Both the position numbers and the translations under genes were made by a program. Under the pieces are notes generated by a model, which was not told where the DNA came from, ran no database searches, and saw only the letters and a program-made list of their open reading frames with translations. 64,000 nucleotides of DNA from Balanoglossus misakiensis. Its lineage: Eukaryota > Animalia > Hemichordata. Below are positions 8,101 to 17,100 of this stretch, one piece after another. Position 1 is the first letter of the stretch. The number at the start of each line of letters is the position of its first letter. Location: positions 15,113,028 through 15,177,027 of the forward strand of contig CM082576.2 in NCBI GenBank assembly GCA_040954595.2. Direction: 5' to 3'.

Positions 8101-11100
8101 AAATTTGCCGACATTGCCTCACTCTGTGACTTGTTTTAATTTTGCAGGTAATGGTGCGTGGTTGGCATCTGTTGAGGGTAAACAAGCCCCATGCCACGTG
8201 GCAAGATGGTACAACTTCATGTCTGCTGAGGAGAAATTCCAGACTGTGGAGAAGTCTGCCCCCAAACTGGCAACTGCATCTGTTGCCACGGCAACAAATG
8301 GAAACAGCAGCGTGAGTTGAAAAACCACTTCACTACCAGAATTTTTAATACACCCACGGCACTTACTTTATCCAATGAACACTTTTCTTTTGAAGAATTA
8401 TCAGCTTGATAATTCTTTGATATGAAAGCTATTGTGTAGTTATAGTTCTCATGACCTTTGACAGCAAAGGTGACATATCAACATTCCAGAGAAGTTTGTC
8501 TTTTTGGAACACGGGGCATTTTCTCAATATTGGTGCCCATCGTTCATCAGTGACGCCCGGAAAGGTGTAAAATAATAAGGTTATTCACAAAACACCGGGA
8601 TTTATATCCTCGTACATCGTATGCTTTGGTATTGTCCTCGACACTGCACGTCTTGGACAGTACCTGTGCTGTACGATGTACTCAGACATAATTCCTGGTA
8701 TTTTGTGAATAACATTATATTATTCATTTACAATTATCATAATGTAGGAATTATCGTAAGGGGTAACATTATGTCTGACTGTTGAAAATACAAGAAATTA
8801 CAAGAATTCACAATAATGGAATATTAAAAATATTGGCTTGGCCTAAGTGTGTAAATATGTAAATATATTGGTTTAATTTGACATTGACTTCTAACATTAA
8901 CAATCACTAGATACATGGAAACCAATCTAATAATGAATACAGTAAATTCTGCAATCTTACATTTGTTCTAATATTAGATTAATCACAGTTTTTCTTTTTC
9001 TTGAATGACGTTGTGTATTGTGTATATAATAAAATTTGTGTGAATATGGTAGAGAGGAATGAAGAAGGACTGATACCTCTGGAGGCCTTAGTGGCCAGTC
9101 CATCGTATTCCTCTGACAAAAATGCAATTCTGTTCATATCGCCCTCATGTGGTAAGTCTGCGTTTATGTAGAGGGACCAACTGGTTCGCCGCCATCTTGG
9201 AAATCACAGTGCATCATGGGTTAGAATCAGTGTACGAAATAAAGCCTGTCCGGCAGTCTGAGACTGGTTGTTTTTCTGTAGGACTGGTAAAAATAAAATG
9301 TTACCAGTCCGACAGACAGGTTGAATTTAGCGTGGGAGTTGACCAGAGGTATCATGGTATCTTTTAGACTTTCCCCAGTTCATGTATTGCAAATAAAAGA
9401 AACAATGATGTAAAAGTTTGAAAATTACATGTATCAAATCAAAGTAATGTAAAGAGAAAGATGATTCCATCTTCAATTGTTCACAGATAAGGTAATAGCT
9501 TCTCAGTTGTATTTGATTACATTTAATTGTAAGGCATAATATCAGGACTGGTAAGTTTTTGGCAGGACTGGCAACTTTTTGAAGTTGCCAGTCCTGGTGA
9601 CCGGTTGATATTTCCTATGAATTTCGAACACTGTTAGAATGTAGCCAATCATTTTCTAGGGTAATATCATCGTAGTCGCCGTTCCAGATGTAAATGTTGT
9701 AAGGTGGTTACACAGACACACAGTGGAGGTGAAGTTTGATAATGCTGAAACCTGCGGATTAAAAAGAAGCAGAGAATGGTTCATTTTCTCTCGCCAGAGC
9801 TTTTATTTCTGCTGTGCGATGCTATGTGAGCAACAAAGCTTAGACTGATTTCGATTCAGATACTGTCAAAAGTGTTTAGTAAAACATTTCATTATTCATG
9901 AGCAACGACATCATTGAAATTAGCCAATTACTTTAAGCGTTTCAGTACTATGCATAAACAATATTATGTGATGCCTTTCAAGGTTAACATATAACTACTT
10001 AAGATTCCTCATCTAGCATTGGAGTCTGATGAATATGACAAAGGATAAACCAAATTCTAAAATTTCTCCCTCCTACTCTTTGACCTGTGTCGTATACATT
10101 CAACTAATATTAGATGTCAACAAATCGGACTCGGCCAAAGCAAAATGATCTTTTAAGGAACCTTGTGTATACCTGGCAACCGTCATTCTTCCAACCATCA
10201 GTCTGGATATTCCGATAATCACACCTTGTTTGTATGACAGTGAATGTAAACTGGATATCTTGCTCTACAAAATGGAAAGAATACAAAGAAGTTGTATTGT
10301 TTTCAACGTGGTGGTGACGTCGACTCTTAAATCCCTGAATGTTGTAGACCCATTTTGGCCTAGTAGTTCGGACTTTCTTACTGCGTGAGTGAAAATAATG
10401 GATTCTGATACAAATTATATGTTCTAATATAATTAGTTTAGTCTGAACATGTAAATAAATCGAAATAATGCATGACGATACAGCATTAAATGTGCTTTAA
10501 ACGACATGTGTGTACAACCCTTTAGTGAGTTGTAAGGTAAATATTCAGAAACAGCAACACTTACTGTGGGGAATGGTAAATGTGACATAATACTCTCCAG
10601 TTCTGAAGAAATAGTGTTCTGGGATGAACATCGTGGAATAATCTCCCGCAAATTCCATATCAACAGCGAACTGGTATCCAACGTATTTGTCAGAGTAAGC
10701 CGTAAGTTCATTGAAGACGTACACTTTTGTACTTCCGTACACAGGTTCGCAGTTTTCAAACTTAATGATAACTGGATGGGACAACCATGTTATCTGCGAT
10801 ATAGAATATAAGAAAGAATATTAATTTTGTGATAAATATGAACACGGAAATAAATGATATGGCCAAGTGTTTAACTCCATTCCCAACATGGTTCCTATTG
10901 GCTCGCCGATAGCACAAAGCAGTAAACATAATTCCTTCATCAGACTTGATTTCACTCCGTTTTATTTACATTCACCTACCTCGACATTAAATCCAAAATA
11001 TGTGACGTCATGGGCCTGAATGTTAACACCTTCGATTAACGAGGCAAATTCCTGGTCAGGGGCTTCCCTAGCAAACGTAATTTCAATGTCTTCTTTTGTA

Positions 11101-14100: not shown

Positions 14101-17100
14101 CATTGGATAACTTTACTATGACTCTCATGCAAGTATGTGTGCTTGCAATGACCCTTGTATACCACCCTCTACGTGTATCATACACCTCTGGGAACAGATT
14201 TTCAGAAAAATGATGGCCCTCAAAATTTTTGCTACATATGTGAGGAGACTTGTTTGATAAAAAGTCATCTCTATAGGTTTTCTTTGTAGACGTACCATTG
14301 AGATTGGTGACAATTTTTAATTTGAAATTTGCATAGTATTGACACAGGAATCTCGATCTCTCTACCCAAATAATGACGGTGACGATAAGATTTTAAAAAT
14401 AAATAAAAATAAAAATATTTTGACCCAGTCATTGTTGTTGTTGATAATATCGTAGTTGTTGTTGACAATGTTGTATGTTGTTGCTAGTTAGGGTTGTTCT
14501 TAGGGTTAGGGTCGATCGTGTTTTGGGTCAGGGTTAGGGTAGAACGATGCATGGTTATAGGGTTAGGGTAGGGTAGAACGATTTAATAAGGTTTAACATT
14601 GCTAAAGGGGTGAAGCAGTATATGAACAAATGTTTGTTTTTTATCGCCAAAAATGCACCTAGCAAACATCGGAAAGTGGTAAAATTCGACGTTGGGGTCA
14701 GAAAGTTTTTATTTTTCTTTCTTTTTTTTGAAAATCTAATCGTCATCCTCGCTGTCATTATTTGGGTTTGGAGTTCAAGATCCCTCTGGTTTTGGGAGAT
14801 AATTGAAATGAACTACTTGATATACTCACTTTCCAATCCAGTTGCAGTCACGCGAAATCCCCGTGCCTTATTCTGCTCACTTGAAATCAATCGCATCCAA
14901 GCGGTATTTCCTTCGGATACAAACATGCGGAGGTCGCGGATACCATTATTGTATCCATATATTGTCATCATATCATCGACATTATTGTCGTCTCCGATTG
15001 TAAGGGAGTCATTTTCTGAGGCCAACTCGAAATCACTGAAGCAGAGCTGTATACGTCCACCATCGGTATTCTCCCAATTCCAAGAACACATGGGAATGAC
15101 GTCGTAATCACGAGAACTAATCTCTGATGCCTCGCCGTTTTTTAGGGAGAACATCTTCTTGCACGTTTCTGACAAAAAGAAATAGAATATATAACTGGTA
15201 AACAGTACAATTAGTATTTCAAGAGACGTTGAATGTTGTGAGGTTTTTGCCTTTATAGACAAGTCAAGGAAATGTTCTCTTTAACACATTGTTAGTTTTT
15301 AAACTATATAAGCTGTTTTACTGTTTAGGGCTGCCAAAAGAGATTTATTACAAACGTTTTTGCAATATAGCCAGCTTTGCTTACATTATGGACATGGGAT
15401 GGTCACAGTTATTTGTTTACTTATGATACGAATACCCCAGGCCCCTAAAACAAAATTTCGACAAGCCATTTTTAAGTTTTTAACCACAAATCAGGAATAA
15501 TTGTCCGCAAGTCAATATTTCCACGACTATTTCAGCAAATGGTAATGAAGAGATCCTGCACGACCCTAAAAACCAAATCACAAAGCAGTCGGACAGGGGA
15601 TTTCTTGAAATAGGGGTCACAGTAAATTCAAGAGCAATTTCTCGAGCTGTTCTATATAAATTTTTGGAAAAAATAAAAAAAATGTCAAATAAAATCACTT
15701 CAATATAAAATATCTTATATTAAAACAGAAATTCTATATAAGATCTACCTAAACTTCATGCTAATACTTTTACCGTATATTACAAAGGATAGAGACCACA
15801 GAAAATCATCATTTAAGGGTAGATTTTAGTCCCCGTGTCTTTACTACACTTACCTTCTTCCGACGTAGCTATATAAACAGGACATAGCAATGTAAAGACG
15901 AGACTTGTCAGGAAAGACATATTCAGTGTTTCCTATCAGCTCTATATTTGTGGTCTACGGAGTTAGAAACTCACATATATCACGATACCAGTGTTGCCAC
16001 AGAGACCTGAACAAGGAAACTTGTGAAAAGCAGATTTTCAGTTCAATTGAAATACGACCTGCATGAAATTATATATTCCCATCATATTATATCATGCTAC
16101 CCTCCGCCATTCTGATTGGATGAGAGCGATTGCAAAATACTGTTTTACCACTGCTGGCAATTTACAAAAAAATAGAGAAACCAAAACGCAAAACAGAGTT
16201 AAGCCTAGCAGAAATGAGTTTGAGTGTGAAAGAGAAATAAATATGAGGGTGACATATTGTAGGAGTACTCTAAATGTTTGAAACCCAAGGGAACAAAACT
16301 GTATCGGTAAACGAAAACAAAGAATTTCTTCTGCATGGCGACTGAAAAGCCTTAGGAAAGATGCATGAATGATGATGCATAAATTGCACACAGAAAACGA
16401 AATTTCTGGCATGTTCGACAAATGGAAGTTTGTAAACTTAAAGTTATGTTTGGTTATTATATACCGCAAACTTGCGGCTGCATATAGATAAATTAAAAAA
16501 AAATTACAAATTTTTATTCAAACTGCAAAGACAGAAATTTGAAGCCAAAAAATGCCTTGAATATGCAGTAAATATGATTTATTACAGCGAGTTGTCTATT
16601 TTTAACCCTAAAATTATCATGATTATCTTATAATATTATTTGGCCTAGCATGAAGTGAACACTATTTAAAAGAGCTAGAATCAAGCATGGCTTATTGGGC
16701 TGTAGAGACATGGACAGGGTGATGAGCATTGAGATTAATAGAATCTCACACTCCCAAGGACCTGGGATCGTATTTCTCACATGAGTTGGGGATTTTTCGT
16801 CCCTCCCGAGCTGCAAGCGAGTGTGGGACAGAATATCCCCGACGATTGTGAGAAATACGATCCCAGGTCCTTGGTGTGTGAGAATCTATTTCTCACACGA
16901 CAAAAAAATAGCCAAATTCGCATTAGAAACATTGAAAATTGTCTGTAAATGTCGTTTGAGTCGTACGATGCTGTTTCTGACGTCCCTATATTACACTTCG
17001 CGGCATTGGGTGACATTTAGCACGCGTTATTACAAAAAAGTGTTGTCATCCAATCAGTGCTCGCGTCATATAGAGCTTTCGATTCTAGAGTGTGGGATCG

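Follow-up and report, generated by a model that had tools for sequence, protein, structure and literature searches.

In the study that defined the GAIN domain, every example analysed directly precedes a transmembrane helix (PMC3321182). Known exceptions include splice forms of receptor genes (PMC6667449 and 10.1101/2023.01.11.521585). Ectodomains that leave their receptors can act at a distance: a soluble N-terminal fragment (NTF) of polycystin-1 (PC1) activates the PC1/PC2 channel (PMC7728438), and a shed fragment of Cirl acts on Toll-8 in trans (PMC13197933). Here, we analyzed 64,000 nucleotides of Balanoglossus misakiensis (assembly GCA_040954595.2, contig CM082576.2, forward-strand positions 15,113,028 to 15,177,027; hereafter the window), in which a minus-strand gene encodes a CUB domain and a GAIN region and stops 14 residues after its GPS cut site. 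We consider the chances slightly better than even that its product is a secreted, self-cutting CUB protein with a polycystin-type GAIN domain and no anchor, acting in trans as a ready-made shed ectodomain. With its relatives, it makes up a set of about 40 stand-alone GAIN genes that depart from the GAIN-before-membrane rule of PMC3321182.

The CUB-GAIN gene and its common stop

In-silico splicing of ten minus-strand exons, from 15920 to 9656 (Table 1), yields an open frame of 503 amino acids closed by TAG, with consistent phases and an in-frame stop 15 bases 5' of the ATG. A preliminary description of this DNA had proposed the same frame, with a signal-like start, a CUB domain and a GAIN-like region, and re-analysis bears it out: residues 1–19 are the most hydrophobic stretch of the protein and, judged by hydropathy, the sole strongly hydrophobic one; the CUB domain scores 37.6 bits against PF00431 (cut-off 21.4); and the protein aligns to positions 19–369 of a 373-position family profile with 384.5 bits. 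Acceptors are AG throughout and donors are GT in eight introns. The exon 4 donor is GC (AAG/gcaagc), which had gone unmentioned, and exon 3 is the weakest-supported of the ten exons. An alternative exon 5 acceptor at 12537 would add seven residues, but the resulting 510-residue variant is disfavoured, as it reaches 375.3 bits rather than 384.5 against a profile built from Ptychodera relatives only.

The encoded protein is predicted to be secreted. Hydropathy reveals no internal transmembrane segment and no long hydrophobic tail, and the lack of a hydrophobic C-terminal tail speaks against a glycosylphosphatidylinositol anchor. The protein carries nine N-glycosylation sequons. Neither a REJ domain nor PKD repeats gave a Pfam match in exons 2 and 4–10 or in the 40 relatives described below. 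The last exon matches half of the Pfam GPS model, all four GPS cysteines are present (C456, C471, C484, C486), and the triad H488-L489/T490, in which the slash marks the bond to be cut, is followed by 14 residues. Because an isolated GAIN domain is sufficient for autoproteolysis (PMC3321182) and the triad is intact, cleavage at HL/T within the secretory pathway is likely. The first GPS tryptophan is replaced by Arg459 and the second, W466, is kept. The substitution, from which doubts about cleavage had been drawn, is confirmed but does not mark damage to this copy: the tryptophan is missing in 24 of 24 matched family rows, compared with its presence in 7 of 8 matched membrane rows. The T-to-A mutant suggested earlier would be a poor control because T838A unfolds the latrophilin GAIN domain; H836S and T838G prevent cleavage and leave folding normal (PMC3321182).

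Absence of an anchor also holds downstream of the cut site, as the preliminary description had it. From HLTTF to the TAG (9658–9656; the codon of the cut-site threonine is at 9700, minus strand), the sequence contains no GT, the sole donor-like dinucleotide being a GC at 9679 in poor context. None of the 104 minus-strand frames of at least 30 amino acids in 1–9655 matches PLAT, PKD channel, polycystin or seven-transmembrane families, and the family profile finds no second gene copy or second GPS exon within the 64-kb window.

The exons were also compared with look-alike contigs from two DNA runs, both of a single sample that is probably the source animal. Summed contig depth, which is not copy number, reaches hundreds to thousands on the exon bins versus 31–49 for single contigs. 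The CUB-GAIN exons are multi-copy in the source animal, a feature that is new relative to the preliminary description. Comparison at the last exon covered 14 and 10 contigs, with similarities from above 99% to below 90%. No alternative letter is listed among them at 9656–9658, the TAG; differences very near the ends of pieces may go unlisted, but the TAG lies 24–26 bases in, and differences as close to an end as 20 bases are listed. A contig of depth 480 covers 9633–9727 free of gaps, TAG included, and one diverged contig departs from the alignment at 9677, its loose end reading LQGVHLP-stop in frame. The stop after the GPS is a family trait, not a one-off. Nine of the 13 differences listed in the last exon are synonymous, against 26.5% expected (p = 0.0016). 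Read-through of the stop was considered and ruled out: one look-alike contig has an indel just past the stop (judged by eye), and the relatives share no continuation.

Relatives without a membrane region and their GAIN fold

Queried with the last exon, protein searches returned one Ptychodera flava model, P0001, which in turn led to six further relatives; a search with neither word index nor length limit gave 106 matches, and a word-based search using exon 5 gave none. Forty relatives (P0001–P0040), sharing up to 49% identity with the window protein, form a group apart from the long membrane matches, which begin near 25% identity. The 16 that bear names are all P. flava RefSeq models (for example XP_070547368.1, XP_070548561.1, XP_070537168.1, XP_070545597.1 and XP_070535211.1) and the other 24 are without a name; apart from the window protein, named members come from this acorn worm only, and the relatives by themselves would point to an acorn worm as the probable source of the window. 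The break points of the P. flava models coincide with the exon borders in the window. We found no account of this GAIN family in the open literature, most subscription papers lying outside the search, and the main text of the P. flava genome paper (PMC11175523) makes no mention of GPS, polycystin, PKD, lectin or G protein-coupled receptors (GPCRs).

None of the 40 relatives runs on into a transmembrane segment after the GPS, and none has PLAT or channel domains. The 27 that reach the last GPS cysteines (25 by pattern match, together with P0024 and P0029) all end 0–23 residues past the cut site, seven of them after 0–1 residue (P0027, P0028, P0033, P0035, P0038, P0039 and P0040). At an intron-like stop rate, 25 such short tails would arise with p = 7e-4 and seven at the site itself with p = 0.015, values that refer to related and not independent members. 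Pfam GPS scores above its cut-off in full-length relatives. Their N-terminal modules vary (HYR, PAN, C-type lectin, pentraxin/LamG, F5/8 type C, SRCR and mucin-like); CUB is confined to the window protein and occurs in none of the 40. In the tails, conservation is gone past about +5 and only T-x-F is kept, with a mean hydropathy at +7 to +9 of -0.9, -1.0 and 0.3, versus 2.2, 1.4 and 1.8 in 51 membrane matches. We regard it as very probable that this family of GAIN proteins lacking transmembrane segments is real, and as probable that the copy in the window is functional. Eight further matches (P0044, P0046, P0059, P0060, P0062, P0069, P0071 and P0095) are long proteins with two GPS-type sites each, either fused models or tandem GAIN receptors.

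A tree was built from 48 rows, 64 of 112 having been omitted for covering fewer than 200 profile positions (eight of these are family members). The window protein and 32 relatives make up one side of a branch with support 99/95, and the family adjoins P0041 (XP_070540434.1; support 97/94), a P. flava polycystin-1-like 2 protein of 2256 amino acids with PLAT and channel domains. The closest matches outside the family are likewise PLAT/channel proteins. The family probably originated from a membrane PKD1L2-like gene through loss of all that followed the GAIN domain.

The GAIN fold, previously only suspected, was recovered in an AlphaFold2 model of the relative P0013 (47% identical to the window protein; alignment of 37 sequences). 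At a predicted local distance difference test score (pLDDT) of 88.6, the model has three long helices followed by beta structure with an inserted sandwich at about 202–318; the tail falls below 50 and is not modelled as a strand. This order fits the GAIN layout of a helical subdomain A ahead of a beta-sandwich subdomain B, some 320 residues in all. Its top nine structural matches (VIA) are all GAIN domains, with Z scores of 12.6–16.7, led by ADGRG6 (Z 16.7, root-mean-square deviation 4.5 Å, 209 residues aligned), and the six best Foldseek rows are GAIN domains as well. The PDB matches of P0013 include no polycystin GAIN, and PDB sequence searches returned adhesion-GPCR GPS motifs only. Atlas models of two relatives reach template modelling scores of 0.70–0.79 to PKD1L2/REJ clusters versus 0.43–0.58 to adhesion GPCRs, which, with the PLAT/channel proteins as best matches, agrees with the earlier impression that the domain is more polycystin-1-like than adhesion-GPCR-like. 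As judged from sequence and from the fold modelled for P0013, the window protein has a polycystin-type GAIN domain. A model of another relative, P0007, built from six sequences, reached a pLDDT of 39.7, and its Foldseek matches were discarded as meaningless.

Two side observations concern this fold. The inserted sandwich of the P0013 model (window exons 7–9) resembles collagen-binding and carbohydrate-binding modules at Z of about 7 and may form a second binding surface. The Atlas also holds short (176–293 amino acids) GPS-bearing clusters, mainly from rotifers, flatworms and chordates, which may be fragments or further anchor-less GAIN proteins.

A proposed role and its competitors

Starting from the observed gene anatomy, the absence of an anchor in cis, the common stop, the family and the GAIN fold of a relative, we infer the following course of events. 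The 503-residue protein would be exported and would cut itself at HL/T. Its variable N-terminal module, here CUB, would bind glycans, matrix, microbes or a cell-surface receptor, and the GAIN domain would serve as carrier and docking body. The short tail would be at most a structural strand (T-x-F), dispensable and without a signal of its own. Because self-cleavage and a stop at the cut site would yield the same product, an ectodomain like that shed by membrane polycystins, the genes can be read as making ectodomains directly.

Several observations weigh against this proposal. The locus is known here from DNA alone, the relatives are predicted RefSeq models, and every look-alike contig comes from a single sample, probably the source. 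Only about eight of the 40 relatives have a clear signal-like start (by eye). Loss of the last strand is predicted to unfold the GAIN domain (PMC3321182), and T-x-F is retained in 13 of the 14 tails that extend five or more residues past HL; the tail may therefore remain attached. The synonymous excess describes the family and not this copy alone, and beyond the last exon it is slight (7 of 18 exonic rows, p = 0.08, these 18 being drawn from the 40 rows shown of a wider comparison with 362 further rows). In the tree, P0041 sits on a long branch, the root is placed at the midpoint, and the direction of loss is deduced.

Other points of this kind bear on a darker view: within a genuine family, the window copy would be a duplicate that is silent or in decay, or else much of the family would be partial polycystin duplicates spread by mobile DNA. 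The gene lies antisense within an intron of a housekeeping gene, has a GC donor and an inserted element just past its stop, and shows no AATAAA between the stop and 8312; 13 of the 40 relatives stop or diverge before the last GPS strand, many being fragmentary or decayed, and some contain tandem partial copies. Against such decay stand the intact frame and phases across ten exons, the synonymous excess, and the summed contig depth on exon bins, which lies far above that of most repeat-poor intron bins (depth again not being copy number). The family has moreover diverged down to about 25% identity with its terminal position held. The common stop, the synonymous excess and 40 relatives of the same layout uphold the earlier claim that this is not a decayed one-off fragment, and we think decay an unlikely account. 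Short ends could also be annotation artefacts or secreted splice forms, with transmembrane exons further on. In mouse, transcripts for soluble N-terminal fragments are known from over half of the adhesion GPCR genes studied (PMC6667449), and one 14-codon tail could be chance read-through (p of about 0.6). Yet within the window no donor precedes the TAG, a second GPS exon is absent and no transmembrane family follows downstream; splicing to exons further on would span both EPRS and RPS29, the search without length limit yielded no close relative, long or short, that enters the membrane, and all 25 pattern-matched tails measure at most 23 residues (the p of 7e-4 again applying to members that are not independent). 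We give this explanation very little credence.

Two further readings turn on what happens at the last strand. A secreted GAIN domain whose last strand is lost or was never made might dock on the stalk that a membrane polycystin exposes once cleaved, providing a new ligand-binding head for the channel or silencing its tethered agonist. Acorn worms would then have split the polycystin receptor, with many secreted GAIN genes whose empty last-strand groove clips onto membrane stalks, and a single channel could take many interchangeable ligand-binding heads. The seven relatives that terminate at the cut site fit this picture, as does the undocked, low-confidence tail of P0013. A model of the strand-less P0038 with a 30-residue stalk of P0041 (1172–1201) scored 0.74, the best of three controls scoring 0.01, and the runs share at least 78% of contacts with a partner pLDDT of at least 57; the docking mark is passed by solved complexes in 51 of 78 cases and by mismatched pairs in 2 of 108. 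Exchange of fragments between adhesion GPCRs is reported in PMC12300799, which cites Silva 2009 for it. However, GAIN domains with their last strand are among the solved structures, so the predictor may be reproducing these and the pass speaks for likeness only; the calibration of the tool does not extend to peptides or predicted chains; P0038 and not the window protein was modelled; and the low tail confidence may stem from a thin C-terminal alignment. The pass tells us that the groove remains amenable to modelling, which is not the same as binding, and we hold both the docking and the split receptor to be improbable. Among the options raised in the preliminary description was a carrier caging a Stachel-like peptide of 14 residues, here understood as an agonist set free to act on receptors. 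Retention of HL/T and T-x-F would suit a carrier, and six of nine listed differences past the cut site are synonymous. But tails range from 0 to 23 residues, with seven members keeping 0–1, and the hydrophobic residues at +7 to +9 are lost; the agonist consensus of adhesion GPCRs is TxFAVLM (PMC12716839), and here only T-x-F remains. Because the tails are unconserved beyond T-x-F, the carrier idea is unsupported, and we consider it highly doubtful.

Genomic setting and known systems

Table 1. Exons of the CUB-GAIN gene and associated features, in window coordinates
Feature	Position	Strand	Content	Evidence
Exon 1	15854..15920	-	aa 1-23, ATG and signal-peptide-like hydrophobic stretch	hydropathy only
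Exon 2	14830..15168	-	aa 23-136, CUB	Pfam PF00431, E 3e-9
Exon 3	13346..13386	-	aa 136-149, linker	splice sites and phase; 3' end within family profile alignment
Exon 4	13014..13104	-	aa 150-180, first helices, GAIN subdomain A; GC donor	gap-free family profile alignment
Exon 5	12203..12516	-	aa 180-284, GAIN subdomain A helices and subdomain B start	family profile E 5.8e-26, raw frame
Exon 6	11712..11826	-	aa 285-323, GAIN subdomain B	family profile E 5.5e-5
Exon 7	10980..11107	-	aa 323-365, GAIN subdomain B and probable start of inserted beta-sandwich (from the P0013 structure model)	family profile E 3.6e-13
Exon 8	10565..10793	-	aa 366-442, inserted beta-sandwich	family profile E 3.9e-28
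Exon 9	10173..10264	-	aa 442-472, GPS first half (C456, R459, W466, C471)	family profile E 4.5e-5
Exon 10, coding	9656..9751	-	aa 473-503, C484, C486, H488-L489/T490, 14-residue tail, TAG	Pfam GPS, E 2.9e-4
EPRS intron hosting the antisense CUB-GAIN gene	8312..17914	+		flanked by EPRS exons
Inverted-repeat element, 406 bp	9228..9633	.	13-bp terminal inverted repeats, 7-8 bp target duplication	

The antisense nesting of the CUB-GAIN gene in an intron of EPRS, the glutamyl-prolyl-tRNA synthetase gene, had not been recognized before. A plus-strand exon at 8148–8311 matches EPRS residues 131–164 (E 6.5e-6), and the next EPRS exon candidate lies at 17915–18003 (+), with tRNA-synt_1c at 18488. The EPRS gene as a whole runs from about 5869 to 40100 (+) and comprises GST-like exons, the GluRS and ProRS domains and, at about 27660, 28429, 33202 and 35110, four exons of WHEP-like repeats; neither its start exon nor one early exon to be expected was located. 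Directly upstream is an exon of RPS29 (ribosomal protein S29) at 3223–3322 (+; Pfam Ribosomal_S14, E 4.9e-11). Beyond EPRS, at about 43400–63100 (-), lie at least three diverged tandem copies of OST-alpha (organic solute transporter alpha), some 30–44% identical in shared exons.

The 406-bp element, likewise not noted before, begins 23 bases past the stop of the CUB-GAIN gene and is absent from the look-alike contigs; the empty-site joint 9219–9633 is found in contigs of depth 378 and 480. One candidate explanation, that the residues encoded after the TAG are a decayed stalk before the first transmembrane helix, was rejected because the inserted element accounts for most of them and, with the site empty, the frame also runs into a stop. 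Right past the empty insertion site, a promoter-like run at 9225–9180 (-) also occurs in look-alike contigs; it contains motifs that we take to be CCAAT-, SBS- and YY1-like, and leads into a brief open stretch that closes at a GT near 9078. High-copy inverted-repeat elements occupy the introns of the gene at 11388–11582, 11870–12180, 12571–12900 and 13597–13957, and some of these repeats recur at 3387–3610, 16740–17150 and 18700–19480.

If the anchor-less family is what it appears to be, it would offer soluble polycystin-type GAIN domains for structural studies, and the relatives ending at the scissile bond would be natural tests of the unfolding predicted on loss of the last strand (PMC3321182). 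It would also open to experiment the questions of whether an ectodomain, once shed, has a role by itself and whether a receptor can exchange one ectodomain for another.

Among known proteins, the closest are PKD1L2-type polycystins such as P0041, which share the polycystin-type GAIN domain with HL/T, lectin-like N-terminal modules and the nearest tree position; two membrane matches also carry weakly similar CUB domains. In contrast to PKD1-like polycystins, to which identity is about 25%, the window protein lacks the stalk, the first transmembrane helix, PLAT, the polycystin/channel domain and the first GPS tryptophan, and it is not a PKD1/polycystin-1 receptor, the transmembrane region, PLAT and channel domains being absent. 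Nor is it an adhesion GPCR, having no seven-transmembrane region after the GAIN domain and no TxFAVLM-like hydrophobic agonist. The P. flava RefSeq models are alike in their GAIN domain and terminal position, but differ in their N-terminal modules and carry automatic names only. Sea urchin SpREJ1, 8, 9 and 10, from a related animal group, are likewise shortened PKD1-family proteins; SpREJ1, 8 and 9 keep one transmembrane segment and SpREJ10 has neither a transmembrane segment nor a GPS (PMC1934368), whereas the window protein lacks REJ. The Cirl and PC1 NTFs and the soluble or single-transmembrane isoforms are similar in being soluble or receptor-less ectodomains that act in trans, but they arise from receptor genes by cleavage or splicing, whereas here the genes stand alone in a large family and some stop at the cut site. 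Finally, the microbial MAIN domains of Brogan and Rudner (10.64898/2026.05.12.724683), have a self-cutting, GAIN-like fold that follows diverse adhesion modules with no receptor attached; they are found in prokaryotes, and a cell-surface anchor almost always comes after them, whereas the present family is anchor-less.

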